A stretch of DNA of 64,000 nucleotides. Source: Escherichia coli (GTDB lineage: Bacteria > Pseudomonadota > Gammaproteobacteria > Enterobacterales > Enterobacteriaceae). The notes below the pieces were generated by a model, which saw only the letters and a program-made list of their open reading frames with translations, ran no database searches and had not been told where the DNA came from. Shown here piece by piece: positions 1-39,210 of this stretch (position 1 is the first letter of the stretch; every line of letters begins with the position of its first letter). The translations under genes were made by a program, and so were the position numbers. The stretch lies in NCBI RefSeq assembly GCF_050920415.1, contig NZ_CP169309.1, one strand, 5' to 3'.

Positions 1-69
1 TCCTGCTCCGGCACCTACCACTAACGCCAGCACGGCGCTGACCACGCCCGCCACCACGATTTTCTTCAT
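1..69 (-). CDS. N-terminal 23 codons of a membrane protein in the FliL/LafF position; rest lies outside the window
   Basis: Reverse complement of 1-69 reads ATG then MKKIVVAGVVSAVLALVVGAGAG (hydrophobic N-terminus), starting 7 nt downstream of the FliK-like stop. Identity is inferred from position only. Confidence 0.3.
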   Translation of the reverse strand, partial: MKKIVVAGVVSAVLALVVGAGAG

Positions 70-76
70 CTTGCCT

Positions 77-1141
77 TTACACTTTGATTAAAACGGATTC
101 GTTCTGTGGAAATTGAGGCGCATCGTCAAGAAGTAAGGCGGCACTCACCTCTTCCTGCTGATGGCCCGACTGTTGTTGCTGTTGCTGCGACTGCCCTTCG
201 GAGGAGACCTGTACGTTCACCTCCATAAAATTTTGCGCCGTCAGATGCTGGCGGAGATCGTCGCTAAACTGCTGTAACGCGCGACAAACCTCGCTTTGGT
301 TCGCGCCGAGGTGCACCGTCAGTTTGCCGTTGTCGAGTTGCACGGCGATCTCGAGCTTGCCAAGCGACGGCGGATCAAGACGTATCGTGGAGATCTGCTG
401 TTGTTTGTTGAGCTGAAAGTGGATCTGATCTTTCAGAAGCGTCGTCAGCTTTTCGCCCAGTTCGTCCATCGAAAGCGTGGCTGGTTTGGCGACAATCTCC
501 TGATGATCGCTGACCAGCTCCGGCGTCTTAACCTGCAACACGGCCCTCGCAATAACCGGCTCGCTGTCTGCTACTTTTTCCGTTTTACGCTCGACCTGCG
601 GGCGCGCGGTCACGCGGTTTGGCTCAGGTTTCGGACGAGCGGGCTGTGCCGATACGCGCGGCTGCGTCGGCGCAATGGCATGTAAATCTTCACTGGCGTA
701 AGTCGCCAGTCTGGCCTGCTGCTCCGGTTTCGCCTGTGGCAACTGGCCGACCAGCGCCTGCAACTGCGGCGGCAACGGCGTGGGCTCCTGCTGTTGCGTC
801 GGGTATTGTGGCGCGTTTTGCGCCACCGCTTTCGTCAAGTGCTGGATAACCGGCGATGTTGCGACATTTCGCGGCTGCGGCGTGTCCTGATGCGGCGCGG
901 CAGGTTGCGGAAGTAAGAGCGCCATTAGCGCCTGCATCGCCACCGGATCGTTCTCCTGCGGATGCGTCGCCTGTTGCTGGCTGGTTTTAGCGTTATGAAC
1001 GCGCTCTGCCACCGCGGCCACCGCCATTTTCGGCAGGGTAAACGCGGGCGCGTTTTCACCGCTCACCGACGGTAAAATATCCGCCTTCAACGACGCGGTT
1101 TCCGCAAGTGTTCCGAGCGTGGCAAGCAATGCCGGATTCAT
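77..1141 (-). CDS. lafE: Flagellar hook-length control protein, FliK-like (Flag-2 LafE position)
   Basis: 354 aa; Pro/Gln-rich central region and a C-terminal segment typical of FliK C-domains (…LDPPSLGKLEIAVQLDNGKLTVHLGA…), followed by a Gln-rich tail. Confidence 0.75.
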   Translation of the reverse strand: MNPALLATLGTLAETASLKADILPSVSGENAPAFTLPKMAVAAVAERVHNAKTSQQQATHPQENDPVAMQALMALLLPQPAAPHQDTPQPRNVATSPVIQHLTKAVAQNAPQYPTQQQEPTPLPPQLQALVGQLPQAKPEQQARLATYASEDLHAIAPTQPRVSAQPARPKPEPNRVTARPQVERKTEKVADSEPVIARAVLQVKTPELVSDHQEIVAKPATLSMDELGEKLTTLLKDQIHFQLNKQQQISTIRLDPPSLGKLEIAVQLDNGKLTVHLGANQSEVCRALQQFSDDLRQHLTAQNFMEVNVQVSSEGQSQQQQQQSGHQQEEVSAALLLDDAPQFPQNESVLIKV

Positions 1142-1449
1142 GACTTCTCCGATAATAAATTAACAATTGAGTAGGCCAGCACGCCTTCCTGATGGCGCTG
1201 ATGCTGTTCCATACGCGCCTTCAACACTTCTGCACGCTGCTCGCGCCGTTTAATCAGGGCATTAAACGCGCCGTACAATTGTGCTTTCACCGCACACAAC
1301 TGCGCCGCATCGGTTTCCGCCGCCGCGTAATCGTGAAACTGGCGCATCAATTGCTGATGCAGTGCCGGAAGGCGTCGCCAGCGTTGTTTATCCAGTGCCT
1401 CATTCATCGCCTCAACCAGCGCGAAAAGTTGCCTGCATTGTTTTTCCAT
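1138..1449 (-). CDS. lafD: Small helical flagellar export chaperone, FliT-like (LafD position)
   Basis: 103 aa helical protein between the FliS-like and FliK-like genes; stop/start overlaps the downstream gene. Assignment by synteny and size. Confidence 0.5.
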   Translation of the reverse strand: MEKQCRQLFALVEAMNEALDKQRWRRLPALHQQLMRQFHDYAAAETDAAQLCAVKAQLYGAFNALIKRREQRAEVLKARMEQHQRHQEGVLAYSIVNLLSEKS

Positions 1450-1453
1450 CGTC

Positions 1454-1846
1454 TTAACCCAGCTTGCCCGAAAGCCCTTCCCAGCCTTCGCGCAGGTTGC
1501 TTAAAATCAGCATCACTTCATCGATTTTCTCTGCCGACAGTTCGCCGCTGGCCTCATACAAGCGATACACACAGTGGTCATAGAGGCGTGAAAGGTTGAC
1601 CACCAGCTCGCCGCCGGTTTCAAATTCCAGCGAACTGGTGAGCGCATTGAGAATGTCGATGCATTTATTGATGCTCTGGGCTTTCTTCTCGAAACGCCGC
1701 CCTTCAATATGACTTTTGGCGCGTTCCAGCTCGTCCATCAGGCCAGAAAACAGCACCAGCACCAGTTCCAGAGGCGATGCCGCCGCTGTACGCGCCGCGA
1801 GATCGATCTCTTTATATTGCGAATAGCCATCCTGTACTTGGTACAT
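1454..1846 (-). CDS. lafC: Flagellin-specific chaperone FliS-like
   Basis: 130 aa; matches FliS family features (…SPLELVLVLFSGLMDELERAK…, …LSRLYDHCVYRL…) and lies directly downstream of the FliD-like gene. Confidence 0.85.
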   Translation of the reverse strand: MYQVQDGYSQYKEIDLAARTAAASPLELVLVLFSGLMDELERAKSHIEGRRFEKKAQSINKCIDILNALTSSLEFETGGELVVNLSRLYDHCVYRLYEASGELSAEKIDEVMLILSNLREGWEGLSGKLG

Positions 1847-1868
1847 CTTTAGGGATATTCCTTCTGAG

Positions 1869-3185
1869 TTACGCGAATGCCGCCATGCTGGCTTTCATGG
1901 TGTACACCTCAACCAGCGTGTTGGTGTACTCCTCCAGATAACGGTCGTAGTTGGCGTTATAGGTATCGGTAAGCTGATCGCCTTCGTCCTGAATTTTGCT
2001 CATCTGATCGTCAATGTTCTGCTGGCGCAGGGTGATGATGCCGTTGCTGGAGTCCGTGTAGGTGTTAATCAGATCGTCCATCTGTGCCACCATGCTGTTG
2101 TCGCCAACGAAAATAGAGGTCAGACCGTCAGGATTTTTCGCCATTTCGTCGTTGAACTGGTCGGAGTCAATCTGTAAGTGGCCGTGAGAATCAAGCGTGA
2201 TGCCATAGTCAACAATCGACACCCCGTTGTAGCTGGCATGGGCGATATCATCGAGCTGGTTCGCCAGTGAGCTGAGTCCGGCATCACCCGCAAATACCCC
2301 GGCGCTGGTACTGTCATCACCGTGGGTGGTCAATGAATCAACCGTATCAATCAAGGTGTTATAGGCATCAACAAAGGTCTGTACTTTCTCCTGGCTGGCG
2401 CTGGAATCTTCGCTGATGTTAAAGGTAGTGAGATCGCTGTCAGAATCGCTGACTTCGGTAAAAGTCATGGTGACGCCGGGGATCACATCATCAAAGGTGT
2501 TGCTGCTATTGGTGATGGCGGGCCCCGTGGCACTGCCGAGATGAATAATCGCGTCCTGAGCGGAGGAAACATCCGTAGCAACGGGCGCGCTGGCGCTGTC
2601 GTTGCTGGCATCATGCCCCGTTACGCTCACCGAAAACGCGCTCTGCGCCCCGGTGCTATCCGAGGTGAGCATAATGGTGGTGGTGCCATCGGTTTTTACC
2701 AGTGCCGCTGAAACGCCGGGGTTATCGTCAGAGTCGTTAATCGCATTCACCAGCTCGCTGGCGTCGATAAAACCGTCGCCGTCACCGTTCTGATCCGCCG
2801 CCGCCAGGTCGATATCCATGGTGCTGTCGCCCATCGTCAGCTCGAAGGTGCCGGTAGCGGAAAAGGCGTCGTCGCCCATACTGAACGTGGTCTGCTGCCC
2901 CTGCGCCAGTTGCTCAACGAAAAATGAGTAGCTTCCCGCCTGTGCCTGCGAGTTAGCGGAAACGGTCGCTGAGTCATTATTGCTGGTGGCGGCAAATGTT
3001 ACCGGGCCGTCGGTATCGCTGTTCAGCGCATCGACGGCACTTTGAAAGTCGCTCAACGCCGAGCTGAGCGTATCCAGGCCGCTGCTTTCGGCATCCAGCT
3101 CCGTTTGCTTCTCCTGCAAATTTGCCGCCTGAGTGGCGACATCCGCATAAGCGATTTCCTGGGCAATAGTTCTTGGGTTAATCAT
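1869..3185 (-). CDS. lafB: Flagellar filament cap protein FliD-like (HAP2)
   Basis: 438 aa; N-terminal coiled-coil, Ser/Thr/Asp-rich central region and C-terminal helical segment typical of FliD; sits between the flagellin and FliS-like genes. Confidence 0.85.
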   Translation of the reverse strand: MINPRTIAQEIAYADVATQAANLQEKQTELDAESSGLDTLSSALSDFQSAVDALNSDTDGPVTFAATSNNDSATVSANSQAQAGSYSFFVEQLAQGQQTTFSMGDDAFSATGTFELTMGDSTMDIDLAAADQNGDGDGFIDASELVNAINDSDDNPGVSAALVKTDGTTTIMLTSDSTGAQSAFSVSVTGHDASNDSASAPVATDVSSAQDAIIHLGSATGPAITNSSNTFDDVIPGVTMTFTEVSDSDSDLTTFNISEDSSASQEKVQTFVDAYNTLIDTVDSLTTHGDDSTSAGVFAGDAGLSSLANQLDDIAHASYNGVSIVDYGITLDSHGHLQIDSDQFNDEMAKNPDGLTSIFVGDNSMVAQMDDLINTYTDSSNGIITLRQQNIDDQMSKIQDEGDQLTDTYNANYDRYLEEYTNTLVEVYTMKASMAAFA

Positions 3186-3364
3186 TGATGACTCCGGTTA
3201 ACGATGTCAGGTTATTGGCAAAAGGCGTGCCAATATTTTTTATGTTAATAATCAATAATTTGAAAAATGGGCGGAAAGCGTGTTTCCGGTTCGGCGGAAA
3301 AGTGCCTGCCGCAAAAAGCACAACACCGCCCGCAGGCGGTATTGAGACTGATGACAAACGCAAC

Positions 3365-3466
3365 ACTGCCTGATGCGCTGCGCTTATCAGGCCTACAAGG
3401 TTTCTGCAATATATTGAATTTGCAATATTTTGTAGGCCGGATAAGGCGTTCACGCCGCATCCGGCA
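3365..3466. repeat. BIME: two inverted REP palindromes downstream of the flagellin gene
   Basis: gcctgatgcgctgcgcttatcaggcctac … gtaggccggataaggcgttcacgccgcatccggca; classic E. coli REP sequence. A near-identical pair with the same linker occurs at 24050-24152. Confidence 0.75.
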
Positions 3467-3474
3467 ATCCCGCA

Positions 3475-4389
3475 CTACTGCAGCAGGCTGGAAACCATGC
3501 TGGACATGCTGTTGGACTGTTTCAGCATGGTGATACCGGTCTGCATCAGCACCTGCTGTTTGGTCATGTTGGACGCTTCCGTCGCGTAGTCGGTATCCAT
3601 AATGTTGCCGATAGCGACTTCGGTGTTGTCCTGCATGCTGGTCAGGTTGTTGGCAGTGTCGTTCAGACGGTTAATAGACGCACCCAGCTTGGATTGGATC
3701 TGCGAAACATCATCCATCGCGGTAGAAATGCTGGTAATCATCTGGTTAGCTGAGCCAGACGCAGTCAGTTCAGTACCGCCAGACACGCCTGCGGTGCCCG
3801 TGGTGTCAGCCTGATCCGCACTAAAGGAGTTGCTGATAGCAGAAAGATCCGTCACCAGCGTGTTCAGTTGGCTTGAAATGTTCACGGTCATGGTATCGGA
3901 AGATTCCGCTCCCACCTGGAAAGTCACCGCGCTCTGGAACAGGCCGTCAGTACCGGTGTTGCTGGTGCCGGAAACACCGAACAGGTTGGTGCCGCCGTAA
4001 GTGGTGTTTTGCAGCATGTCAGACATCTGCTGGCCCAGTTCGTCGTATTCGTCCTGCATCGCCTGCAGGTCATCGTCGCTGTAGGTGCCGTTCGCTGCCT
4101 GAGTTGACAGGTCTTTCATACGACCCAGCACATCAGACATTTCGTCGAACATGCTGTCAGCGGTTTGCAGCATCGCCGTTGCATCATTAATGTTGCTCAG
4201 TGCCACCCCCATACCGCTGGACTGTGCAGTCAGACGGTTAGCAATCTGTTTGCCTGCGGCGTCATCGGCAGAAGAGTTAATCCGGTTACCTGTTGCCAGG
4301 CGTTCCATAGATGTAGACAAAGAAGAACTGCTTTTGCTGATTGCATTAACGGCGGCCATTGAGGCGTTATTGGTGTTAATAGATAACAT
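3475..4389 (-). CDS. lafA: Lateral flagellin
   Basis: Starts MLSINTNNASMAAVN… at the internal Met of the 330-aa ORF (304 aa from that Met); conserved flagellin N-terminus (…LATGNRINSSADDAAG…) and C-terminus (…TEASNMTKQQVLMQTGITML…). Confidence 0.9.
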   Translation of the reverse strand: MLSINTNNASMAAVNAISKSSSSLSTSMERLATGNRINSSADDAAGKQIANRLTAQSSGMGVALSNINDATAMLQTADSMFDEMSDVLGRMKDLSTQAANGTYSDDDLQAMQDEYDELGQQMSDMLQNTTYGGTNLFGVSGTSNTGTDGLFQSAVTFQVGAESSDTMTVNISSQLNTLVTDLSAISNSFSADQADTTGTAGVSGGTELTASGSANQMITSISTAMDDVSQIQSKLGASINRLNDTANNLTSMQDNTEVAIGNIMDTDYATEASNMTKQQVLMQTGITMLKQSNSMSSMVSSLLQ

Positions 4390-4874
4390 GATACTGCTCC
4401 TTGGGATTAATCGTTTTCGTTTCGATACCCTGTAAAAACGACACCTCAGGCGCAAACTTAAAATCACTATGAAAAAAATTTCGCCACGTATTATCCGATG
4501 CCACTTTTAGCTAAAAAAAGCAGAGGTTAAATTCAGATAAAAAGATTATTAGCAATATCTGCCACATGGCCAGGTATCAAAATATGTCTTTATCAATTGC
4601 TTGATATAGTTAAGATTGTCATCAATTAACGCGTTTTCTTCACAATGTACTGATGCCAAAATTTACATTGCGTTGCAAATAGTACACATTTGGCTATTGT
4701 ACCTGTCCTGTCATTTCGTTACATTCCCACGCCATATAGTGATTAAGAATAATCCTATTACCATAAAATATTAATTATCACGCAGAAAAATCATCTTCTC
4801 AGGGACGTATAAGACTGTGCTTTATGTAAAGCACTATCAGGAACCATTTATCCCTTGCTAAGGTAAACTCAACT

Positions 4875-5717
4875 ATGAGTATTATTATCAACAACTGGCG
4901 GATGGACCCGTCACTCAATGCCTTAATACATTGCGAAACGGGTGAAACACGTCGTCTCGGCGAATACCATTTTATTTTGCTGGAAACATTAGCAAAAAAT
5001 GCCGATGTGGTTTTATCGCGATCTTATTTATGTGCCGAAGTATGGAAGAACCGCATTGTCGGCGGTAACAGCCTGCCGACGGCGATCCATGCGTTGCGCG
5101 TTGCTATCGACGATGATGGCAAACAACAGAACATTATCAAAACCATCCCGAAAAAAGGTTACTTGTGCAATAAAGAGTATGTGTCTTTGCCGGAATCATC
5201 GCCTGCGGAAAAGCTGATGATTACCGACCAGGTACAGAAAACTGTGCCAGAAAAGATATCTTCGACAACACCGCCTTTACCTGGTAGAAAAAAATATAAA
5301 GAAATGATAGGGCTGGCGTTGAGCGCAGCTGTTATTTTTGTTGGCTCGACCGTGGGCTATTCACACTTGAAAAGTACACCTGACGCCCCGCAACTGGTAA
5401 AAGAGTCAATTAACAGTCCAAGAATAAAAATATTTCATTTAACTTCTGCTGGAGAAAATACTTCCGTACCGTTACTATCACAAACCCTCGCACCAGGAAA
5501 AGACAAACTCGATAATTTATTGTCAGCGCATAATATGACAATGACAACCTATTATAAATATGTTCGTAACCGACTGGAGAGTGATATTGTTCTGCGCAAC
5601 CAGTGCAATGGTAGCTGGCAATTAACCTTTAATGTGGAAGGCTGGCAGAACAGTGATATTAATAGCACGATGTATCAGAATTTAGAGAAGTTGTTAAATA
5701 CTGTGCAGAAGTGCTGA
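4875..5717 (+). CDS. lafZ: ToxR/CadC-like membrane-anchored winged-helix transcriptional regulator (LafZ position)
   Basis: 280 aa; N-terminal OmpR/PhoB-type winged-helix-like region, one hydrophobic span (…IGLALSAAVIFVGSTVGYSHL…), then a C-terminal domain; AT-rich upstream region. Confidence 0.55.
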   Translation: MSIIINNWRMDPSLNALIHCETGETRRLGEYHFILLETLAKNADVVLSRSYLCAEVWKNRIVGGNSLPTAIHALRVAIDDDGKQQNIIKTIPKKGYLCNKEYVSLPESSPAEKLMITDQVQKTVPEKISSTTPPLPGRKKYKEMIGLALSAAVIFVGSTVGYSHLKSTPDAPQLVKESINSPRIKIFHLTSAGENTSVPLLSQTLAPGKDKLDNLLSAHNMTMTTYYKYVRNRLESDIVLRNQCNGSWQLTFNVEGWQNSDINSTMYQNLEKLLNTVQKC

Positions 5718-5730
5718 TGAATACGAATAT

Positions 5731-5771
5731 ATGCCGGATGCGACGCTAAACGCGTCTTATCCGGCCTACCG
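5731..5771. repeat. REP element
   Basis: atgccggatgcgacgctaaacgcgtcttatccggcctacc; canonical REP palindrome. Confidence 0.7.
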
Positions 5772-5775
5772 ATAA

Positions 5776-6753
5776 TTACCCCAATAAATTCCTCACCGTC
5801 TGGCTGGAAATTCGCGCCTGACCGTTCACCGCCTGCAATAAAACCTGATAGTTATGATTGGCGCTGTCGAGCACACCGCCGAGATTTTCCGACGCCTGTA
5901 CCGCACTTTCTGTCTGCGGGAAGCGGGACATGCCGTCGATCAACTGGCGGGCCTTTTCCTGCTGCACAGCCATCTTCGCGCGCTGCTGATTAATGTTTTC
6001 TAACGTCTGAGAAATCCCCGCCCCGCCCTGTTGCAGGCTTTGAGCTAACCGCTCAGCCTCAGAGGGTTCGGCAAAGGTTTTTAGTGGCATAAACGCTGAT
6101 TTATCGCCATCGGTGCGCACGCTTAACGTGCGTTCAATGTCAGGCCACTGTTTTTCGGTGGTGGAGAAGCTGATGCCATCCGCTTGCTGATGCAGCTGCA
6201 CGCCTACGCGGCGCAGGGCGTTGGTCAGCCGTGTCTGGTACTGCCCGGCGTTATCATCCTCAGACAGCATCACCGCCGAAAGCTGGGTCTGCCGCCCGTC
6301 AGAAACGCTGAACATCCGCGTTCCCAGTGTGGGGTTGTTGACGAGATTCGCCAAATCCGGCGAGTGAAAGGTCACCCGCGCTTCCCCCTGCAACACCGGC
6401 TGCAACTGGCGGTCCACCGCGCCGCCGGAAAGTGCGGTGCGTTTGTCCAGCATCTGCGTGAGCGCCGTACTCTGCGCCTGCCCGCCCTTACGCAGGCTGT
6501 GACGATAATCGAGCAACTGCTGTTCCAGTTGCCCGAGATAGTGATCCGCCTGCTGCAAGGTGGTGAGCTGGTCGTTAAGCTGCACGCTGTAACGCTGCGG
6601 GCGAGTGGTAATCAGCGGCGAGGCCGGATATTCACTCGCCGTCGCCGGGAGCTTTTGCCGCACCGCCTGAGTGGGCGCAACGGTTGACGACGATACCGCA
6701 GCGCTATGCGCACCGCCGGTGGCGAGTGATGAAGATGTAAGTCCGACCTGCAT
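5776..6753 (-). CDS. lafW: Uncharacterised Flag-2 protein (LafW position)
   Basis: 325-aa ORF between the FlgL-like gene and the regulator; Gln/Leu/Ala-rich helical composition; no motif I can assign. Gene symbol is by position only. Confidence 0.45.
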   Translation of the reverse strand: MQVGLTSSSLATGGAHSAAVSSSTVAPTQAVRQKLPATASEYPASPLITTRPQRYSVQLNDQLTTLQQADHYLGQLEQQLLDYRHSLRKGGQAQSTALTQMLDKRTALSGGAVDRQLQPVLQGEARVTFHSPDLANLVNNPTLGTRMFSVSDGRQTQLSAVMLSEDDNAGQYQTRLTNALRRVGVQLHQQADGISFSTTEKQWPDIERTLSVRTDGDKSAFMPLKTFAEPSEAERLAQSLQQGGAGISQTLENINQQRAKMAVQQEKARQLIDGMSRFPQTESAVQASENLGGVLDSANHNYQVLLQAVNGQARISSQTVRNLLG

Positions 6754-6769
6754 ACTGTTCCTGAAAGAG

Positions 6770-7597
6770 TTAGAGAACGCTGAATAAATTCAACTCACTC
6801 ACTTTCGAGTAAGTCTTGAGGGTAGCTTCCATTGCCACTTCCAGTCCGGTAAAGGTGATCGACGCAGGGCCGTAATCGAGATCCTGCAATGAACCAATCA
6901 ACTCATCATTAGAGGTAGAGATATCGGTCTGCGCATCGCTCAGCATCGACATGGTGTTTTGTGTCTCGCCGAGCGACGCAATCGAGGCGTTGAGGTCGTC
7001 CGAGGCGGTGTCCACCACATTAACGGCGTTTTGAATATCGCTTTGTACCTGCGGATCTGCCGGGTCAACGTTAGGGTCTTGCAACTCCTGAGAGAGCGAA
7101 TTGAGCGTGTTGAGCACATCTAAATTACTTCCGAAGAAATCGCTCACCGCCACGTTGGTATCCACTTCAACGCCGTTCGACACCGTCGTCTGGCGATGGT
7201 CGCTGTTACCCTGATAGCTGTAGCTATCGGTCACGCCATCACCGTCATCGTCCAACGCCACAATCGGCGGCTGATCGTTGATGGTGCCGCCAAAGACGTA
7301 ATGCCCGTCTTCATCCTGATAGTTGAGCGCCGCCAGCAGGCTGTTGTTGACGCCATCGAGAATCGACTCCTGCTGGCTTAACCCCGCCGACGCAGAGTCA
7401 ATATTGCTTTGATACTGCTCAATCGCCGACTGCTGGCGGTTCAACTGAGTGATGCGTGTGGCGGCGATAGGATCATCCGATGGCTGCAAAATTTCCTTGC
7501 CGGTTGCCATCTGCTCGACCACGTGCGCCAGTTCGCCAGAAAGATTATTAAAACTTTGCGTCATCGAGACGTAGGTTTGTTGAGTGGTTACTCGCAT
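6770..7597 (-). CDS. lfgL: Hook-filament junction protein FlgL-like (HAP3)
   Basis: Start chosen at the internal ATG (MRVTTQQTYVSM…), which has a GGGAG Shine-Dalgarno upstream and a 14-nt gap after flgK; flagellin-like terminal helices. The ORF track start at 7621 is the alternative. Confidence 0.8.
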   Translation of the reverse strand: MRVTTQQTYVSMTQSFNNLSGELAHVVEQMATGKEILQPSDDPIAATRITQLNRQQSAIEQYQSNIDSASAGLSQQESILDGVNNSLLAALNYQDEDGHYVFGGTINDQPPIVALDDDGDGVTDSYSYQGNSDHRQTTVSNGVEVDTNVAVSDFFGSNLDVLNTLNSLSQELQDPNVDPADPQVQSDIQNAVNVVDTASDDLNASIASLGETQNTMSMLSDAQTDISTSNDELIGSLQDLDYGPASITFTGLEVAMEATLKTYSKVSELNLFSVL

Positions 7598-8988: not shown

Positions 8989-9070
8989 GTTGGATCCTTA
9001 CCGGTAAATCGTGCCGGATAAAAGCGGCGTGAAGTTGGGGATTCTTAAGTGGGAGGGGGTGCGCGCATTG

Positions 9071-9192: not shown

Positions 9193-9197
9193 TCCCC

Positions 9198-11470: not shown

Positions 11471-11481
11471 CCCTTAACGCC

Positions 11482-28609: not shown

Positions 28610-28612
28610 GGG

Positions 28613-31247: not shown

Positions 31248-31251
31248 AGGG

Positions 31252-31607: not shown

Positions 31608-32594
31608 TCAGGAGAAAACTTCGATACCGTGCTTGCGCATGGAGGCCAGTCGATAGCGCAGGGCGCGCGGGGTAATGCCTAACAAGTCGGCGATTTTGCT
31701 GCGGTTGCCCTGATATTTACGCATCAGGTCGGCGATATATTGATACTGCGCGCTTCGTCCGTGCTGGCCTAAATCACCGGTTTCGGCAATGTGGACGGCG
31801 GGCTGAACAGGCCATTGCAGATCGCTGTGGTCTGCAATATCGGTGTCCGGCAGGCCTAATGCATCCGGGTAAATTACGCCGTCGCGATTTAAAATCATTC
31901 CCCGCTGAATGGCGTTTTCCAGTTGACGCACGTTACCGGGCCAGCGGTAATTAAGCAGCGCGCGGCGGGTGGATTCGGACAGGGTGATATTTTTCACCAG
32001 TACCGTTGAGTATTTTTTAATAAATGACTCTGCCAGCGGAATAATATCGTTCAGGCGTTCACGCAGTGGCGGCATGGTAATAGGGATAACCGCCAGACGA
32101 TAATAGAGATCTTCACGAAAACGTCCGGCGGCAACTTCCTGCTCCAGGTTTTTATTGGTGCAGGCAATCAGGCGAAAATTGAGTTTGATTTGTCGGTTGC
32201 TGCCTAATCGCTCAACCTGTTGTTCCTGCAACACGCATAATATTTTGGCCTGTAGCGCCAGCGGCATTTCACCAATTTCATCGAGTAATAAGGTGCCGTT
32301 ATTTGCCAGTTCCATTTTTCCTGGCACGCTGGCAATTGCGCCGGTAAATGCACCTTTGTCGTAGCCAAATAACGTCGATTCCAGCATATTTTCCGGGATC
32401 GCCGCGCAGTTCACGCCGATATAGGGCGCATTATCATTTTCACCAAAGGCTACGGTGTGAATATATTTCGCCACGCACTCTTTCCCCGCGCCGGTTTCGC
32501 CCTGAATCAGGACCGGCACGTTAAAGGCGGCGACACGCTTTGCCAGAGTAAAAGCGTTTATGCTGGAGGCGGCAGATGCAATAAGTTCAGACAT
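31608..32594 (-). CDS. lafK: Sigma-54-dependent transcriptional activator LafK-like (AAA+ domain plus C-terminal HTH; no N-terminal receiver domain)
   Basis: 328 aa; Walker A GETGAGKE, GAFTGA sigma-54 contact motif, Fis-type HTH at the C-terminus. An in-frame stop 25 codons upstream of the ATG excludes an N-terminal extension. Confidence 0.85.
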   Translation of the reverse strand: MSELIASAASSINAFTLAKRVAAFNVPVLIQGETGAGKECVAKYIHTVAFGENDNAPYIGVNCAAIPENMLESTLFGYDKGAFTGAIASVPGKMELANNGTLLLDEIGEMPLALQAKILCVLQEQQVERLGSNRQIKLNFRLIACTNKNLEQEVAAGRFREDLYYRLAVIPITMPPLRERLNDIIPLAESFIKKYSTVLVKNITLSESTRRALLNYRWPGNVRQLENAIQRGMILNRDGVIYPDALGLPDTDIADHSDLQWPVQPAVHIAETGDLGQHGRSAQYQYIADLMRKYQGNRSKIADLLGITPRALRYRLASMRKHGIEVFS

Positions 32595-32711
32595 AGGGTG
32601 AACAATATAAGTAGCGACAATAATCAGGATGTTCTGAAGCGTATCACCGGCGGGATTAACAAGTTTGAATTAAACGATAATAAAAATATTATTTCATTTT
32701 AAACAATGAGT

Positions 32712-32800
32712 TAGAGTCGTATGGCGGATAAGGTTTTTACGCCGCATCCGGCAATTGTGCACCGGTGCCTGATGCGACGCTGCGCGTCTTATCAGGCCTA
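32712..32800. repeat. BIME in the divergent lafK / fliM control region
   Basis: atggcggataaggtttttacgccgcatccggcaa … ggtgcctgatgcgacgctgcgcgtcttatcaggcctac. Confidence 0.7.
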
Positions 32801-32980: not shown

Positions 32981-33832
32981 ATGCTGAAGTACAGTAAAAC
33001 GCCAGGCATCTTTAAATTAGAAGGTAATCGGCTCGGACGCCCCTACCATCGCCTGCCGACCCTGTTTACGGGGAATTTTGACGTGATTGATTCGCATCTC
33101 GGCAGCTACTTTCTCAAAAAGCATCGCAGCAATATCACTTTAAAAAAGATTGGCTGCGAAATGGATATTATTAATAAAAACGCCGAGTTGATGGTTTCCC
33201 AAGTCGGGCATCTGGCATTTGATATCGATCGCTCCTTATTGTTAATGCTGCTGGGCAATTTTTATGGTCTGGAGTCTTCTCTTGAAGAGGCAAAAGCCCA
33301 TAATGGCCTGCCGACCAAAACCGAAACACGATTAAAGAACCGACTCGCGCTGGATATCTGCACGCTGATATTTAATCTGCAAACCTCCGGTATTGCGCTG
33401 AAATTAAAGCTGGACAGCAGCACGGTAATTACCCACTGGGCGTATCAATTAACCTTTACCCTCGCGGGCGATGAAGAGAGCCGTTTTCGTATTTTGCTCG
33501 ACGATGCCCACACCGATTTTATTTTAAATCTGATCCGCCACAGTGAGCACAGTAAACCGCAGCAGGTGGCGAAATCCGTCAACAAGCCGGCACTGATTAA
33601 AGAGATCATCCGCTCTCTGCCGTTGACCCTGAACGTCAAAATCGCCGAGCTGTCGATGAATGTTGCCGATCTGGCGCAGATAAAAGCCGGAGATATTTTA
33701 CCCATCTCGCTGGGAGAAACGTTCCCGGTGGCGATTGGGCAATCTGAATTATTTAGCGCCCTGATTGTGGAAGACAAAGACAAACTGTTTTTGTCGGAGC
33801 TGGCGGGCAAAAATGAGAATAGCCATGAGTAA
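32981..33832 (+). CDS. lfiM: Flagellar motor switch protein FliM-like
   Basis: 283 aa; C-terminal FliN-like SpoA region (…AGDILPISLGETFPVAIGQSELFSALIVEDKDKLFL…). Confidence 0.85.
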   Translation: MLKYSKTPGIFKLEGNRLGRPYHRLPTLFTGNFDVIDSHLGSYFLKKHRSNITLKKIGCEMDIINKNAELMVSQVGHLAFDIDRSLLLMLLGNFYGLESSLEEAKAHNGLPTKTETRLKNRLALDICTLIFNLQTSGIALKLKLDSSTVITHWAYQLTFTLAGDEESRFRILLDDAHTDFILNLIRHSEHSKPQQVAKSVNKPALIKEIIRSLPLTLNVKIAELSMNVADLAQIKAGDILPISLGETFPVAIGQSELFSALIVEDKDKLFLSELAGKNENSHE

Positions 33833-34196
33833 GCAAGAAGATATTTTAACCGGGGATTTTGGCCTCACCGATGACGTTGCGCCTGTCACGAAACCCGCCG
33901 ACGCCGACACGCTGGTCACTCGCCTGGAAGACCGCTTTTCCGACTCGATGACGCTGCTGAAACGCATTCCGGTGACCTTAACGCTGGAAGTGTCGTCGGT
34001 GGAAATCATGTTAGCCGACCTGCTGAACATCGACGACGACACGGTGATTGAGCTGGATAAACTCGCCGGGGAGCCACTGGATATCAAAGTGAACAATATC
34101 CTGCTGGGCAAAGCGGAAGTGGTAGTGGTCAACGAGAAGTACGGCCTGCGCGTGCTGGAGTTTAACACCCGCGATATCAACGACCTGGCACCATGA
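33813..34196 (+). CDS. lfiN: Flagellar motor switch protein FliN-like
   Basis: SpoA domain (…VTLTLEVSSVEIMLADLLNIDDDTVIELDKLAGEPLDIKVNNILLGKAEVVVVNEKYGLRV…). Start uncertain: 33813, 33825 or the ORF track's 33765. Confidence 0.8.
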   Translation: MRIAMSKQEDILTGDFGLTDDVAPVTKPADADTLVTRLEDRFSDSMTLLKRIPVTLTLEVSSVEIMLADLLNIDDDTVIELDKLAGEPLDIKVNNILLGKAEVVVVNEKYGLRVLEFNTRDINDLAP

Positions 34197-34945
34197 AACG
34201 CCGCGCTCAACTGACGCTGGGCCTGGCGCTGCTGGCGCTCGCGCCGCTGGCAATCGCCCAGGGCGGTGATATTGCGCTGCTTAACGTGGTCACTCATGGC
34301 AACACTCAGGAATACAGCGTCAAAATCCAGGTTCTGATTCTGATGACCCTCGTCGGTTTGTTGCCGACGATGGTGCTGATGATGACCTGCTTTACGCGCT
34401 TTATTATCGTGCTTTCACTACTGCGCCAGGCGCTGGGGCTGCAACAAACGCCGCCAAACCGCATTCTGATTGGCATTGCGCTCTCCCTCACCCTGCTGGT
34501 GATGCGCCCTGTCTGGCTGAATATTTACGACCACGCGGTGGTGCCGTTCGAAAACGATCAGATTACCCTGACCGATGCGCTAAGCACCGCCGCGACGCCG
34601 CTGAAACGCTTTATGCTGGCGCAGACCGACAAAAAAGCGATGGCGCAAATCATGACCATCGGTGGCGCGAAGGGCAATGCCGCCGACCAGGATCTCTCCA
34701 TCGTGGTGCCCGCCTATGTGCTGAGCGAGCTGAAAACCGCTTTCCAGATTGGCTTTATGATTTACATCCCGTTTCTGGTTATCGACCTGATTGTCGCCAG
34801 CGTATTGATGGCGATGGGGATGATGATGCTGTCGCCGCTGATCGTTTCGCTGCCGTTTAAACTGATGCTGTTTGTGCTGATCGACGGCTGGTCGCTGACC
34901 ATCGGCACGCTCACCACCAGCATTCGCGGGCTGGGGCTGGGCTGA
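34193..34945 (+). CDS. lfiP: Flagellar export apparatus protein FliP-like
   Basis: 250 aa; signal peptide and conserved FliP membrane core (…MTCFTRFIIVLSLLRQALG…); ATGA overlap with the fliN stop. Confidence 0.9.
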   Translation: MKRRAQLTLGLALLALAPLAIAQGGDIALLNVVTHGNTQEYSVKIQVLILMTLVGLLPTMVLMMTCFTRFIIVLSLLRQALGLQQTPPNRILIGIALSLTLLVMRPVWLNIYDHAVVPFENDQITLTDALSTAATPLKRFMLAQTDKKAMAQIMTIGGAKGNAADQDLSIVVPAYVLSELKTAFQIGFMIYIPFLVIDLIVASVLMAMGMMMLSPLIVSLPFKLMLFVLIDGWSLTIGTLTTSIRGLGLG

Positions 34946-34947
34946 TT

Positions 34948-35220
34948 ATGTTGACCGTAGACGTAGCCGCCGACATTGTCGCCAGCGGCATTAAAGTAGT
35001 GATTTTGCTGGTTTCGGTACTGGTGGTGCCAAGCCTGCTCGTTGGCCTGCTGGTGAGCGTGTTCCAGGCAGTGACGCAGATTAATGAGCAGACACTGAGC
35101 TTTTTACCGAGGCTGATTGTCACGCTGGTGGTGCTGGGGGTGTGCGGTAAATGGATGATTATCCAGTTGCATGATCTCTGCATTCATCTGTTTACCCAGG
35201 CCGCGTTGCTGGTGCATTAA
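34948..35220 (+). CDS. lfiQ: Flagellar export apparatus protein FliQ-like
   Basis: 90 aa, two hydrophobic helices (…FQAVTQINEQTLSFLPRLIV…). Confidence 0.85.
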   Translation: MLTVDVAADIVASGIKVVILLVSVLVVPSLLVGLLVSVFQAVTQINEQTLSFLPRLIVTLVVLGVCGKWMIIQLHDLCIHLFTQAALLVH

Positions 35221-35221
35221 G

Positions 35222-36004
35222 ATGCGCACAAGCGACGTTACGCAACTGATGGATCTGGCGCTGGGGCTGTGGTTTCCCTTCGTGCGCATTATGGCGTTTC
35301 TGCGCTATGTGCCGGTGCTGGATAACAGCGCCCTGACCGTGCGCGTGCGGATTATTTTGTCGCTGGCGCTGGCAATCATCATCACGCCGTTGATCCCCCA
35401 TCCCATTCCCCACGACCTGCTTTCGCTCAATAGCCTGATCCTGACGGTGGAGCAAATTTTATGGGGCATGTTATTCGGGCTGATTTTTCAGTTCCTGTTT
35501 CTGGCGCTACAGCTGGCCGGGCAAATTCTCTCGTTCAATATGGGGATGAGCATGGCGGTGATGAACGACCCGAGCAGCGGCGCATCGACCACCGTACTGG
35601 CGGAGCTAATCAACGTTTACGCGATCCTGCTGTTTTTTGCCATGGACGGGCATCTGCTGCTGGTGAGCGTGTTGTACAAGGGCTTCACCTACTGGCCGAT
35701 TGGCAACGCCCTGCATCCGCAAACCCTGCGCACCATCGCGCTGGCCTTTAGCTGGGTGCTGGCGTCGGCATCGCTGCTTGCGCTGCCGACCACTTTTATC
35801 ATGCTGATTGTGCAGGGCTGCTTTGGCCTGCTCAACCGCATTGCGCCGCCGCTGAATCTCTTTTCACTTGGCTTTCCCATCAACATGCTGGCAGGGCTGG
35901 TCTGTTTTGCCACCCTGCTCTACAACCTGCCGGATCACTATCTGCATCTGGCGAATTTTGTGTTGCAGCAGCTCGACGCGCTGAAAGGTCACTATGGCGG
36001 ATAG
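35222..36004 (+). CDS. lfiR: Flagellar export apparatus protein FliR-like
   Basis: Start taken at the ATG just after the fliQ stop (MRTSDVTQLMDLALGLWFPF…), 260 aa, polytopic membrane protein. Confidence 0.8.
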   Translation: MRTSDVTQLMDLALGLWFPFVRIMAFLRYVPVLDNSALTVRVRIILSLALAIIITPLIPHPIPHDLLSLNSLILTVEQILWGMLFGLIFQFLFLALQLAGQILSFNMGMSMAVMNDPSSGASTTVLAELINVYAILLFFAMDGHLLLVSVLYKGFTYWPIGNALHPQTLRTIALAFSWVLASASLLALPTTFIMLIVQGCFGLLNRIAPPLNLFSLGFPINMLAGLVCFATLLYNLPDHYLHLANFVLQQLDALKGHYGG

Positions 36005-37133
36005 CAGCAGCGAAGAAAAAACAGAGAAACCTTCGGCGCAAAAGCTGCGTAAAGCGCGTGAAGAGGGACAACTGCCGCGCTCGAAGGATATGGGGCTGGC
36101 GGCGAGCCTGTTTGCGGCGTTTGTGGTGATCTCCAGCAGCTTCCCGTGGTATGCCGATTTTGTACGCGAGAGTTTTATCAGCGTGCATCAGTACGCGCAG
36201 GAGATTAATAACCCGGACGTTATCGGCCAGTTTCTGCGCCATCACCTGTTAATTCTCGGCAAGTTTATTCTCACCTTGCTGCCGATGCCCGCCGCCGCAC
36301 TGCTCTCCTCACTGGTGCCTGGCGGCTGGCTGTTCTTGCCGAAAAAAATCCTCCCGGATTTCAGCAAAATCAGTCCGTTAAAAGGCATTGGACGGCTGTT
36401 CTCCAGTGAACATCTTGCGGAAACAGGCAAGATGACGGCGAAGTCGGTGGTGGTGCTGGTGATGCTGTGGATTAGCCTGCGCAATAACTTTGCCGCCTTT
36501 CTCGGCCTGCAGGCGCTGCCGTTCAAACTGGCGATGAATGAGGGTTTGTCGCTCTACGCCAGCGTGATGCGCAACTTTGTCATCCTGTTTATTTTCTTCG
36601 CGCTTATCGACGTGCCGCTGGCGAAAGCCCTGTTCACCAAAGGGCTGAAGATGACTAAGCAGGAGCTGAAAGAAGAGTACAAAAATCAGGAGGGCAAGCC
36701 GGAAGTGAAAGCGCGTGTGCGGCGGCTGCAACGGCAGCTGGCGATGGGGCAAATCCGCAAAGTGGTGCCGAAAGCCAACGTGGTGATCACCAACCCGACC
36801 CACTACGCCGTGGCGTTGCAGTATGACCAGTCGCGCGCCGCCGCGCCGTTTGTAGTGGCAAAAGGTACCGATGAAATCGCCCTCTATATTCGTCAGGTCG
36901 CCACTGAAAATCAGGTGGAAGTGGTCGAGTTCCCGCGGCTGGCGCGCTCGGTTTACTACACCACCCAGGTGAACCAACAAATTCCGTTTCAGCTTTACCG
37001 GGCCATCGCCCACGTTCTGACCTACGTCCTGCAAATGAAACACTGGCGCGAGGGCGCACAGCCGCGCCCGGCCCTGAACAGACATATTTCCATTCCCAAA
37101 GAGGTGCTTAAACTGGATGGCGAAAACAACTAA
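35994..37133 (+). CDS. lfhB: Flagellar export switch protein FlhB-like
   Basis: 379 aa; N-terminal …EKTEKPSAQKLRKAREEGQLPRSKD… and the autocleavage NPTH motif (…VVITNPTHYAVAL…). Confidence 0.9.
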   Translation: MADSSSEEKTEKPSAQKLRKAREEGQLPRSKDMGLAASLFAAFVVISSSFPWYADFVRESFISVHQYAQEINNPDVIGQFLRHHLLILGKFILTLLPMPAAALLSSLVPGGWLFLPKKILPDFSKISPLKGIGRLFSSEHLAETGKMTAKSVVVLVMLWISLRNNFAAFLGLQALPFKLAMNEGLSLYASVMRNFVILFIFFALIDVPLAKALFTKGLKMTKQELKEEYKNQEGKPEVKARVRRLQRQLAMGQIRKVVPKANVVITNPTHYAVALQYDQSRAAAPFVVAKGTDEIALYIRQVATENQVEVVEFPRLARSVYYTTQVNQQIPFQLYRAIAHVLTYVLQMKHWREGAQPRPALNRHISIPKEVLKLDGENN

Positions 37134-39210
37134 ATCGTTCCTCGCGCTGCTGCGCGGCGGTAATCTCGGCGTACCGCTGGTGATCCTGTGTATTCTGGCG
37201 ATGGTTATTCTGCCGCTGCCACCTGCGCTGCTGGATATTCTGTTCACCTTCAACATTGTGCTGGCGGTGATGGTGCTGCTGGTGGCGGTGTCGGCGAAAC
37301 GACCGCTGGAATTCAGCCTGTTCCCGACCATTTTGCTGATCACCACCTTAATGCGCCTGACGCTCAACGTTGCTTCTACGCGCGTGGTGCTGCTGCACGG
37401 GCATCTCGGCGCGGGCGCGGCGGGTAAGGTGATTGAGTCGTTTGGTCAGGTGGTGATTGGCGGCAACTTTGTCGTCGGTTTCGTGGTGTTTATCATCCTG
37501 ATGATCATCAACTTTATCGTCGTCACCAAAGGGGCCGAGCGTATTTCCGAGGTTTCTGCCCGCTTTACCCTGGACGCGATGCCCGGCAAACAGATGGCGA
37601 TTGACGCCGATCTTAACGCCGGGTTGATCAACCAGGCGCAGGCGCAGACCCGCCGCAAAGATGTTGCCAGCGAGGCCGATTTCTACGGCGCAATGGACGG
37701 GGCATCGAAATTTGTGCGCGGGGATGCCATCGCCGGGATGATGATTCTGGCGATCAACCTGATTGGCGGCGTTTGTATCGGGATCTTCAAATACAACCTG
37801 AGCGCCAATGCCGCCTTCCAGCAGTATGTCCTGATGACCATTGGTGACGGGCTGGTAGCGCAGATCCCTTCCCTGCTGCTCTCTACCGCGGCAGCGATTA
37901 TCGTCACCCGCGTCAGCGACAACGGCGATATCGCCCATGATGTGCGCCACCAGCTGCTGGCAAGCCCGTCGGTGCTCTACACCGCCACCGGGATTATGTT
38001 CGTGCTGGCGGTGGTGCCGGGAATGCCGCACTTCCCGTTCCTGATGTTCAGCGCCCTGCTTGGTTTTACCGGCTGGCGAATGAGCAAACGCCCGCAGGCG
38101 GCGGAGGCGGAAGAGAAAAGCCTCGAAACGCTGACCCGCACCATCACCGAAACCAGCGAGCAACAGGTCAGTTGGGAAACCATTCCGCTGATCGAGCCCA
38201 TTAGTTTAAGCCTCGGTTACAAGCTGGTGGCGCTGGTGGACAAAGCGCAGGGTAATCCGCTCACCCAGCGGATTCGCGGCGTGCGGCAGGTGATTTCCGA
38301 CGGCAACGGCGTGCTGCTGCCGGAGATCCGCATTCGGGAAAATTTCCGCCTCAAGCCCAGCCAGTACGCCATTTTCATCAACGGCATTAAGGCTGATGAA
38401 GCGGATATTCCGGCGGATAAGCTGATGGCTCTGCCCTCCAGCGAAACCTACGGCGAGATTGACGGCGTGCTGGGGAACGACCCGGCGTATGGGATGCCGG
38501 TGACCTGGATTCAGCCCGCGCAGAAGGCGAAGGCGCTGAATATGGGGTATCAGGTGATCGACAGCGCCAGCGTAATTGCCACACATGTGAATAAGATTGT
38601 GCGCAGCTATATTCCTGATTTGTTTAACTATGACGATATTACTCAGCTGCATAACCGTTTGTCGTCGATGGCACCGCGCCTGGCGGAGGATTTGAGTGCG
38701 GCGCTGAATTACAGCCAGTTGCTGAAAGTGTACCGGGCACTGCTGACCGAAGGCGTTTCCCTGCGCGATATCGTCACCATCGCCACCGTGCTGGTCGCCA
38801 GTAGTACCGTCACCAAAGATCATATTCTGCTGGCGGCCGATGTGCGCCTGGCACTGCGGCGCAGCATTACCCATCCGTTCGTTCGCAAGCAGGAGCTGAC
38901 GGTGTATACGCTGAATAATGAGCTGGAAAACCTGCTGACCAACGTGGTGAATCAGGCGCAACAGGCTGGCAAAGTGATGCTCGATAGCGTGCCGGTGGAC
39001 CCGAATATGCTCAACCAGTTCCAGAACACGATGCCGCAGGTGAAGGAGCAGATGAAAGCCGCAGGTAAAGACCCGGTGCTGCTGGTGCCGCCGCAGCTGC
39101 GCCCATTGCTGGCGCGTTATGCGAAGTTGTTTGCGCCGGGGTTGCATGTGCTGTCGTATAACGAAGTGCCGGACGAGCTGGAGTTGAAGATTATGGGGGC
39201 GTTGAGTTGA
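37117..39210 (+). CDS. lfhA: Flagellar export gate protein FlhA-like
   Basis: 697 aa; conserved N-terminal membrane domain (…FPTILLITTLMRLTLNVASTR…) and large cytoplasmic C-terminal domain. Confidence 0.9.
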   Translation: MAKTTKSFLALLRGGNLGVPLVILCILAMVILPLPPALLDILFTFNIVLAVMVLLVAVSAKRPLEFSLFPTILLITTLMRLTLNVASTRVVLLHGHLGAGAAGKVIESFGQVVIGGNFVVGFVVFIILMIINFIVVTKGAERISEVSARFTLDAMPGKQMAIDADLNAGLINQAQAQTRRKDVASEADFYGAMDGASKFVRGDAIAGMMILAINLIGGVCIGIFKYNLSANAAFQQYVLMTIGDGLVAQIPSLLLSTAAAIIVTRVSDNGDIAHDVRHQLLASPSVLYTATGIMFVLAVVPGMPHFPFLMFSALLGFTGWRMSKRPQAAEAEEKSLETLTRTITETSEQQVSWETIPLIEPISLSLGYKLVALVDKAQGNPLTQRIRGVRQVISDGNGVLLPEIRIRENFRLKPSQYAIFINGIKADEADIPADKLMALPSSETYGEIDGVLGNDPAYGMPVTWIQPAQKAKALNMGYQVIDSASVIATHVNKIVRSYIPDLFNYDDITQLHNRLSSMAPRLAEDLSAALNYSQLLKVYRALLTEGVSLRDIVTIATVLVASSTVTKDHILLAADVRLALRRSITHPFVRKQELTVYTLNNELENLLTNVVNQAQQAGKVMLDSVPVDPNMLNQFQNTMPQVKEQMKAAGKDPVLLVPPQLRPLLARYAKLFAPGLHVLSYNEVPDELELKIMGALS

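Follow-up and report, generated by a model that had tools for sequence, protein, structure and literature searches.

An Escherichia coli Flag-2 lateral-flagellar locus with all reading frames open, yet with lesions in lfgL and lafK that make a working flagellum unlikely

Gene Content and Chromosomal Site

Positions 1–39210 of the window, i.e., of the whole stretch of 64,000 nucleotides of Escherichia coli DNA analyzed here, hold the already described Flag-2 (lateral-flagella-like) cluster of this species at its usual chromosomal site. In tblastn searches with every Flag-2 protein of E. coli 042, the proteins from LafE to LfhA were recovered full length and collinear at 89.7–100% identity, and no internal stop or frameshift was detected in the Flag-2 genes. 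The alignment of LfgC, which is frameshifted in 042, begins at residue 17 (90.6% identity), and the C-termini of two proteins of variable region 1 (VR1) diverge from their 042 counterparts. These matches bear out a previous sequence-only reading of the region as a Flag-2 lateral-flagellar locus, including its coordinates and gene inventory. The 28 genes listed in a published description of the Flag-2 locus are present, collinear and open in frame, with lfgL as the sole one not at full length (34 codons missing). Gene names follow the PGAP annotation of the near-identical record NZ_CP169399.1, which belongs to MFDS1022581, the nearest complete genome (99.96% identical over window positions 7327–61127).

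The left edge of the window lies inside lafF (partial, positions 1–69), and further genes of cluster 3 (lafWZABCDEFSTU), namely lafW, lafZ, lafA, lafB, lafC, lafD and lafE, are complete. The filament part of this cluster (1–4389, minus strand) matches 042 at full length and 93–100% identity by tblastn and comprises, beside the lafF fragment, the fliK-like gene lafE (77–1141), lafD (1138–1449), lafC/fliS (1454–1846), lafB/fliD (1869–3185) and the lateral flagellin gene lafA (3475–4389), the product of which features Flagellin_N and Flagellin_C matches. On the plus strand, lafZ (4875–5717) encodes a ToxR-like winged-helix transmembrane regulator (Pfam Trans_reg_C, 1.4e-13; 92% identical to 042). 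It is followed on the minus strand by lafW (5776–6753), encoding a putative extra hook-associated protein, and by lfgL (6770–7597), the gene of the hook-filament junction protein HAP3, with a 102-bp in-frame deletion.

The structural genes of cluster 2 (7612–15739, minus strand), assigned by 042 matches and the names in the nearest record, are lfgK (7612–8988), lfgJ (9198–9497), lfgI (9497–10597), lfgH (10612–11277), lfgG (11482–12267), lfgF (12294–13031), lfgE (13031–14233), lfgD (14257–14970), an intact lfgC (14970–15401) and lfgB (15404–15739). They are accompanied on the plus strand by lfgA (15821–16558) for the P-ring assembly chaperone, lfgM (19634–19912; Pfam FlgM) for the anti-sigma-28 factor and lfgN (19925–20353; Pfam FlgN) for the chaperone of LfgK and LfgL. 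Part a of cluster 1 (26132–31593, minus strand; 042 matches) consists of lfiJ (26132–26566), the ATPase gene lfiI (26569–27906), lfiH (27899–28609), lfiG (28613–29623), the MS-ring gene lfiF (29601–31247) and lfiE (31252–31593). The adjacent lafK (31608–32594, minus strand; Pfam Sigma54_activat, 1.6e-63) encodes a sigma-54-dependent activator with the substitution R120C. Part b (32981–39210, plus strand; 042 matches) includes lfiM (32981–33832), lfiN (33825–34196), lfiP (34193–34945), lfiQ (34948–35220), lfiR (35222–36004), lfhB (35994–37133) and lfhA (37117–39210).

On its right-hand side, the locus closes with lfhA, which stops at position 39210 and is followed by hicAB and yafL. K-12 MG1655 features lfhA (b0229) and lafU (b0230) as pseudogenes between rayT and dinB, which confirms the earlier statement that K-12 keeps only remnants. 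In NZ_CP169399.1, lafF, lafS, lafT (motA), lafU and then dinB lie to the left of the window-equivalent region, free of pseudogene flags. The cluster is therefore placed at the site of the K-12 remnants, with yafL towards one end and dinB towards the other, the latter taken from NZ_CP169399.1. From the flanks named in the sequence-only reading, dinB and yafL were retained, whereas rayT has to be replaced, with hicAB sitting between lfhA and yafL. The expected position of lafS, lafT and lafU left of the window is likewise supported by this record; the window stops short of these genes, and they were seen intact solely there.

Cargo, Variable Region and Promoters

Directly after the lfgA stop, a low-GC cargo insertion of 3.0 kb (16564–19565; junction mapped against 042) carries a gene for a dcm-type C5 methyltransferase (16747–18171, plus strand; 914 bits with NCBIfam PRK10458, the cut-off of which is 710) and one for an EcoRII endonuclease (18258–19463, minus strand) with both domains (Pfam EcoRII-N, 1.1e-59; EcoRII-C, 7.5e-71). 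The cassette, which the window has between lfgA and lfgM, occurs in 28 of 5426 complete genomes, chromosomal every time. VR1 (20430–26129), the flagellin modification region, comprises lafV for a FliB-like lysine methylase (20480–21409, plus strand; 43.8 bits with NF038110, which is under the curated cut-off of 85), a GT2 glycosyltransferase gene (21597–24041, plus strand), two low-GC hypothetical ORFs absent from 042 (24368–25189 and 25182–25721, both plus strand) and a gene for a TagD-like cytidylyltransferase (25725–26129, minus strand). Neither the EcoRII/Dcm cassette nor the set of VR1 modification genes is new as cargo: the former has been described for Flag-2, and the VR1 content of the window agrees with the same report (PMC6993521).

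A perfect sigma-54 promoter match, TGGCACAGCGATTGCT, was found at 15776–15791 (minus strand), 36 nt upstream of lfgB, and this site (TGGCAC-N5-TTGCT) is the sole zero-mismatch one in the window. Sites with one mismatch lie 31–34 nt upstream of lafB and lafV, namely TGGCACGCCTTTTGCC at 3217–3232 (minus strand), 31 nt before the lafB start, and a sigma-54-like site at 20430–20445 within VR1. The pattern count in the window (7 against 3.25 expected, with 4 of 100 shuffles reaching 7) is not significantly above chance, and the weight therefore rests on the position and orientation of these three sites. Together with a dedicated activator, LafK, the lfgB site represents the regulatory arrangement of a Flag-2 system. 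A search for sigma-28 promoters (TAAA-N14-16-GCCGATAA, mismatches allowed) yielded nothing convincing upstream of lafA, lfgM, lfgK or other genes.

In-Frame Deletion in lfgL

Because of the 102-bp in-frame deletion, LfgL comprises 275 aa in the window instead of 309 aa. The deletion junction is located at about 7329/7330, the missing residues 90–123 are VRDDLLEAANGTNTADSLASLGQDIESLTESMVA, and both ends of the lost segment are flanked by the 6-bp direct repeat TGGCGG (coding strand). The Pfam Flagellin_N match covers profile positions 1–85 of 139 with the deletion and 1–136 without it. An AF2 model of the undeleted protein features a helix at residues 43–98, a turn at 99–103 and a second helix at 104–125 with a pLDDT of about 90. 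The lost residues thus span the last part of helix 1, the turn and nearly the whole of helix 2 in the flagellin-like D1 domain. [quoted passage not shown]

Every one of the 1274 complete E. coli genomes carrying lfgL keeps the lost segment, as do the 40 best-matching genomes and the nearest draft contig. Moreover, it is present in 120 homologue clusters, and 121 of 121 aligned homologues retain it, with most of its positions invariant. In these homologues, which share 85–98% overall identity, positions 84–129 are mostly invariant. The exact 275-aa LfgL was not found in any public collection searched, and the deletion is confined to the sequence of the window. The D1 domain of FlgL is a conserved four-segment bundle, and cells without FlgL have no functional flagella (PMC6155364). 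LfgL in the window does not retain the four D1 segments of an intact axial protein, since helix 2 is removed, and we infer that its function is lost through the deletion of residues 90–123.

Substitution at LafK Residue 120

LafK comprises the AAA+ (Sigma54_activat), AAA_lid and HTH_8 domains, and the Pfam search found no domain beyond the AAA+ and HTH_8 ones. The substitution R120C (window base 32237) lies within the conserved KILRVLQE motif: residue 120 is a cysteine in the window and an arginine in the nearest record and in 042. It aligns with R122 of PspF (KLLRVIE motif). At this position, arginine occurs in 162 of 176 matches (92%) and cysteine in none (150 diverse activators), and LafK thus departs at R120 from the ATP-site residues which an activator of this type retains.

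For PspF, a Vmax of 1.26 per min was reported for R122A against 39.5 per min for the wild type, i.e., an ATPase loss of about 97%, and both R122A and R122E lowered the ATPase Vmax about 30–40-fold (Joly et al., 2012; PMC3419264). By analogy, R120C would lower LafK activity. This extrapolation leads from the engineered Ala and Glu variants of PspF to a natural Cys allele of a different protein. The exact C120 allele is found on at least 22 public contigs and is therefore perhaps tolerated.

Comparison With Related Loci

The Flag-2 locus was reportedly described by Ren et al. in 2005 for enteroaggregative E. coli 042. In this strain (NC_017626.1, about 284.7–323.2 kb), the same three clusters are found at the same site and in the same order, and LafA, LafC, LfgG, LfiJ and LfiQ are 100% identical to the window proteins. 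Features of the window are the loss of 34 codons from lfgL, R120C and a 2-aa loop insertion in LafK, the EcoRII/Dcm cassette after lfgA and the two extra low-GC ORFs in VR1. The RelE/HTH pair of the 042 VR2 is absent from the window, hicAB is present where 042 has rayT, and lfgC is intact, whereas that of 042 contains a 2-bp insertion. Variable spots with indels relative to 042 were observed in LafK (the 2-aa loop), LfgD (DPT repeat) and LafE (polyQ run); the nearest record has the same ones, as the proteins are identical there.

MFDS1022581 shares the cargo genes and the organization of the window, and lafS, lafT and lafU are annotated as intact to the left. In contrast to the window, it encodes a 309-aa LfgL, LafK with R120, LafW with P143, the GT2 glycosyltransferase with Y465 and LfiM with V204. 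Seven coding substitutions separate both sequences, four of them non-synonymous and, polarized with 042, two per lineage. LfiM V204A and GT2 Y465S correspond to the 042 state, which makes the nearest record the odd one out, whereas LafW P143L, differing from both 042 and this record, is derived in the window lineage and shared with a Logan contig (ERR10854090). The laf systems of V. parahaemolyticus and Aeromonas hydrophila feature the same repertoire, with the sigma-54 activator LafK, the sigma-28 factor LafS, the flagellin LafA and the LafT/LafU stator. Nevertheless, swarming is proven for these, whereas no Flag-2 of E. coli is known to be expressed and the copy in the window carries two lesions.

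Discussion

[quoted passage not shown] Owing to the 34-residue deletion in LfgL and the substitution of the catalytic arginine of LafK, Flag-2 is probably not functional here. The proposed course of events follows a three-tier cascade modelled on the lateral systems of Vibrio and Aeromonas and on the flag-1 paradigm. LafK together with sigma-54 would switch on the export apparatus, the basal body, the hook and LafS; completion of the hook-basal body would lead to the export of the anti-sigma factor LfgM, and LafS (sigma-28) would then drive the LafT/LafU stator and the flagellin LafA, the substrate of the modification enzymes from VR1. With one of the four longitudinal D1 segments of LfgL removed, the junction for LafA polymerization should not form, and any flagellin leaving the cell would do so in monomeric form and be lost. 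R120C, affecting the arginine that acts in trans at the ATP site of the AAA+ domain, should strongly weaken the sigma-54-dependent transcription of class-2 units, among them the lfgB operon. The predicted phenotype is a weak class-2 expression without attachment of a filament.

A fully intact and potentially functional locus, in which the lfgL deletion would be an assembly error or tolerated and R120C neutral, agrees with the complete gene set and open frames. It also agrees with the nearest public genome, in which lfgL is of full length, R120 is kept and pseudogene flags are absent. The 275-aa LfgL still passes the NCBIfam cut-off for FlgL (145.6 vs 127.2 bits), and flag-1 FlgL may cross-complement the truncated protein. 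The deletion itself may stem from an error in assembly or sequencing; several 1–2-bp indels relative to the nearest relative occur further right, and these might be sequencing noise. Nevertheless, the cleanly delimited loss of 102 bp between 6-bp direct repeats resembles replication slippage and not a typical homopolymer error, and it affects a near-invariant helix hairpin modelled with high confidence. Likewise, the arginine of LafK is never replaced by cysteine among the diverse activators, and its PspF equivalent is needed for ATPase activity. An intact locus is thus regarded as improbable. Somewhat better founded, albeit still doubtful, is the assumption that E. coli keeps Flag-2 transcriptionally silent whatever its sequence, with the lesions as early neutral decay under relaxed selection and not as the cause of the loss. 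Whether Flag-2 is expressed, as asked in the sequence-only reading, is not a new question: the ST131 strain EC958, with an ORF-intact Flag-2, showed neither LafA nor Flag-2 motility at 28 or 37°C (PMC4637896). Additionally, lfgC is frameshifted in 042, the cluster has disappeared from about 77% of the complete E. coli genomes, 76 of 100 strains analyzed hold only truncated lfhA/lafU copies (PMC6993521), and four of the seven coding substitutions mentioned above are non-synonymous. In turn, Flag-2 proteins are highly conserved across E. coli and Citrobacter and a canonical sigma-54 promoter is kept, which speaks for purifying selection still acting in many lineages. Furthermore, Plesiomonas possesses a functional Flag-2, and Yersinia expresses its own at low temperature.

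Finally, the apparatus might persist as a type III export device which lacks a filament and releases LafA or cargo to the medium. The genes for export gate, ATPase, rod, hook and cap are all open, and Salmonella mutants in junction proteins shed unpolymerized flagellin into the medium. The lack of functional flagella upon loss of the junction protein (PMC6155364) points in the same direction, and a function of Flag-2 in secretion is among the speculations of De Maayer et al. Nevertheless, the deletion occurs in a single sequence and is therefore not a selected design, R120C would reduce the expression of the machinery needed, and domain searches revealed no effector candidate in VR1 or VR2 of the window, so that such a device is considered highly improbable. 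Equally far-fetched is a natural HAP3-defective Flag-2 in which hook-basal bodies form, the filament stays unanchored and modified LafA monomers or other substrates are released; if true, it would be a snapshot of a flagellum converting to, or decaying into, an export machine.

The presence of Flag-2 at this site adds nothing new, as the locus was described in 2005 and surveyed across the Enterobacterales, including the EcoRII/Dcm cargo, in 2020. The lesson is instead that open reading frames throughout differ from intactness, since an in-frame deletion and one missense change, both missed by ORF scans, would probably disable the system. The conclusion from open frames to an intact, potentially functional locus, as previously drawn, lost its support after alignment to 042 and the nearest genome, and intactness fails on LfgL and LafK. 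That claim was to fall with frameshifts or premature stops in essential genes. To the letter, this condition does not apply, because neither lesion is of that kind, but in its intent it does, as an essential gene is damaged. For tests of Flag-2 function in E. coli, the window sequence is a poor choice, and MFDS1022581, with full-length lfgL, LafK R120 and an intact lfgC, is the better test strain.

Gene content and integrity of the Flag-2 locus

The window is part of an E. coli chromosome. Of the 5,426 complete E. coli genomes searched by megablast, strain MFDS1022581 (NZ_CP169399.1) matched it best, with base-by-base identities of 99.97% across 1-7335 and 99.96% across 7327-61127. The PGAP annotation of this record and the RefSeq annotation of the enteroaggregative reference strain 042 served as guides, and each 042 protein of the lateral flagellar system Flag-2 was used as a tblastn query against the window. 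These proteins aligned over their full length, with the exceptions of LfgC and the divergent C-termini of two proteins of variable region 1 (VR1). Likewise, each Flag-2 gene was translated with a start codon, a terminal stop and zero internal stops, apart from the truncation of lafF by the window start (bases 1-69 present). The gene lfgC is intact, whereas the 042 copy is frameshifted by a 2-bp insertion. In the nearest genome, lafF, lafS, motA/lafT and lafU precede dinB and carry no pseudogene flags, while K-12 MG1655 features only the pseudogenes lfhA (b0229) and lafU (b0230) between rayT and dinB. The gene lfgL is present in 1261-1274 of the 5426 complete E. coli genomes (about 23%), in agreement with the published Flag-2 prevalence of 24 in 100 E. 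coli strains (PMC6993521).

A sequence-only reading had described positions 1-39210 as an apparently intact Flag-2 locus, and its coordinates, gene inventory, identification and K-12 contrast proved correct; the system as well as its cargo are already known. Nevertheless, the inference of intactness fails owing to a 34-residue deletion in LfgL and the exchange R120C in LafK. The alignment and frameshift check proposed in that reading found all frames open, but it also disclosed the gap in LfgL. The value of this case is one of caution, as open frames do not equal integrity.

In-frame deletion in lfgL

Nine substitutions and one 102-bp gap separate the Flag-2 part from NZ_CP169399.1. The hook-filament junction protein LfgL (HAP3), comprising 275 instead of 309 amino acids, was the single large discrepancy in the tblastn comparison with 042, and direct alignment with the nearest record located a clean 102-bp loss at ~7329/7330. 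The lost segment is flanked by a 6-bp direct repeat (TGGCGG, coding strand) and encodes residues 90-123 (VRDDLLEAANGTNTADSLASLGQDIESLTESMVA). As the deletion keeps the frame, it is unnoticeable to any ORF scan. The truncated protein scores above the NCBIfam FlgL cut-off (145.6 vs 127.2 bits). Its match to Pfam Flagellin_N covers positions 1-85 of the 139-position profile, against 1-136 for the full-length protein.

Alignments of the deleted region with V. parahaemolyticus FlgL (3PWX, E 7.6e-32) and with the FlgL of Salmonella, as resolved in its native junction (9GO6), contain no gaps. In the AlphaFold model of full-length LfgL, a helix at 43-98, a turn (99-103) and a second helix (104-125) reach a pLDDT of about 90, so that the deletion cuts helix 1 short at its end and eliminates the hairpin turn together with nearly the whole of helix 2. 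Flagellin stacks on the D1 domain of FlgL, a conserved bundle of four segments (alpha1, alpha2, beta-hairpin/alpha3, alpha4), and cells deficient in FlgL lack functional flagella (Hong et al., PMC6155364). We infer that D1 of the shortened LfgL cannot keep this topology, because one whole antiparallel segment is gone and the chain is left at the wrong end of the bundle.

The segment is retained throughout the 120 best homologue clusters (E. coli, E. albertii, Shigella, Citrobacter), with a gap of 4 residues in a single cluster and no variation at most positions. Complete genomes with the 102-bp sequence number 1274, no fewer than those with its flanks. The closest draft relative found (Logan ERR10854090), sharing the LafW L143 allele with the window, encodes the full 309 amino acids and elsewhere differs by one substitution over 5.7 kb, and the exact 275-residue protein had no match in a collection of 15 billion proteins. 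Together, these comparisons indicate a deletion private to the window sequence; either it arose by recent slippage or, with lower probability, it reflects an error of assembly.

LafK R120C and sigma-54 promoter matches

Of the nine substitutions, four are non-synonymous. Polarised by 042, LfiM V204A and GT2 Y465S represent the 042 state; the changes LafW P143L and LafK R120C arose in the lineage of the window. The sigma-54 activator LafK contains AAA+, lid and HTH_8 domains, and its C120 lies within the motif KILRVLQE and is aligned to R122 of PspF. This conserved arginine acts in trans in the nucleotide pocket, and the ATPase Vmax of 39.5 per min drops to 1.26 in the variant R122A (Joly et al., PMC3419264). 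Among 150 diverse family representatives, the position holds arginine in 162 of 176 domain matches and cysteine in none. As 22 public contigs encode the identical C120 protein, it represents a real lineage allele and not noise.

A relevance of LafK is supported by a perfect sigma-54 promoter match (TGGCACAGCGATTGCT) 36 nt upstream of lfgB and by one-mismatch sites that precede lafB by 31 nt and lafV by 34 nt, even if the total of such matches across the window is not above chance by itself. The site upstream of lafB falls within a 91-aa ORF between lafA and lafB (3178-3453), termed a hypothetical protein in the nearest record and unannotated in 042. It gave no match in a family search and is probably promoter DNA, not a gene.

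Proposed cascade and predicted outcome

Judging from homology to the lateral systems of Vibrio and Aeromonas and from the flag-1 paradigm, LafK and sigma-54 would drive the export apparatus, rod, rings and hook as well as LafS. LafS, freed once LfgM is exported, would then drive LafA and the LafT/U stator, with LfgK and LfgL forming the junction and LafB capping the growing filament. R120C would weaken this cascade at its top, and the LfgL deletion would block filament nucleation; at most hook-basal bodies are predicted, with LafA lost to the medium. Quite apart from the two lesions, expression of Flag-2 in E. coli was never shown in the literature searched; EC958 features an ORF-intact Flag-2, yet neither LafA nor Flag-2 motility (PMC4637896), and 042 has the frameshifted lfgC.

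Cargo, intergenic elements and flanking loci

Between lfgA and lfgMN lies a 3.0-kb insertion of low GC content (16564-19565, about 43%), which starts immediately behind the lfgA stop and carries the genes of a PRK10458-type Dcm methyltransferase and of an EcoRII endonuclease. Of the 5426 complete E. coli genomes, 28 contain this insertion, at one chromosomal place every time; as Flag-2 cargo, it had been described before in 21 Escherichia strains (PMC6993521). The insertion leaves the 68 nt upstream of lfgM the same as in 042: this conserved stretch (19566-19633, GATTAAAGTTTTGCCGCCTGTTAACCGC) begins exactly at its right edge and opens with a TAAAGTTT motif resembling a sigma-28 -35 element, for which no matching -10 element was found. 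VR1 (20430-26129) encodes a FliB-like methylase under the curated cut-off, a GT2 glycosyltransferase and a TagD-like cytidylyltransferase. A patch of 37.6% GC in VR1 (24368-25721) holds two further hypothetical ORFs that overlap (273 and 179 aa) and are absent from 042, their sole family match being a sub-threshold DUF4347 in the first. Conversely, the RelE/HTH pair of the second variable region in 042 is absent from the window.

A GC-rich element of about 130 nt with an internal palindrome structure (CCCTCTCCCTGTGGGAGAGGG...GGGTGAGGG) fills both the lfgJ-lfgK (9071-9201) and the lfgG-lfgH (11346-11478) intergenic region and resembles the boxC-type intergenic repeat. The lfgF-lfgG spacer comprises 26 bp in the window and 178 bp in 042; hence, the number of such spacers differs among strains. 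The divergent lafK-lfiM intergenic region (386 bp), in which no sigma-54 site was found, holds a REP/BIME-like palindromic element (32705-32800, GCCGCATCCGGCA...GCCTGATGCGACGC...).

Between lfhA and yafL, the window carries a hicA/hicB toxin-antitoxin pair (39294-39942), whereas K-12 and 042 have rayT (yafM). It also lacks the dinJ-yafQ pair that K-12 features between dpaA and yafL; yafN-yafO, located between dinB and yafP in K-12 and 042, is missing from the nearest record. Right of Flag-2, a few 1-2-bp indels distinguish the window from NZ_CP169399.1. In the reverse transcriptase gene ltrA of a group II intron (49988-51504), a 1-bp deletion at ~50573 breaks the reading frame into two ORFs, whereas the nearest record encodes an unbroken protein of 440 aa. 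Further differences, either real or assembly noise, are G7 instead of G6 at 53996 at the start of a Tle1-like effector gene, several indels within an IS21 istA/istB copy (57800-59376) and a 3-base substitution in vgrG (60762-60764, CCG to TGA, plus strand). Collinearity with the fetched part of NZ_CP169399.1 is lost across 61128-64000, which suggests a different type VI secretion (T6SS) cargo downstream of vgrG. Adjoining the T6SS Tle1-like phospholipase effector, three tandem DUF3304 paralogues (54026-55673, 86-88% identical at the DNA level) are situated in a vgrG/PAAR/Tae4 island broken by ISAs1 and IS21 remnants.
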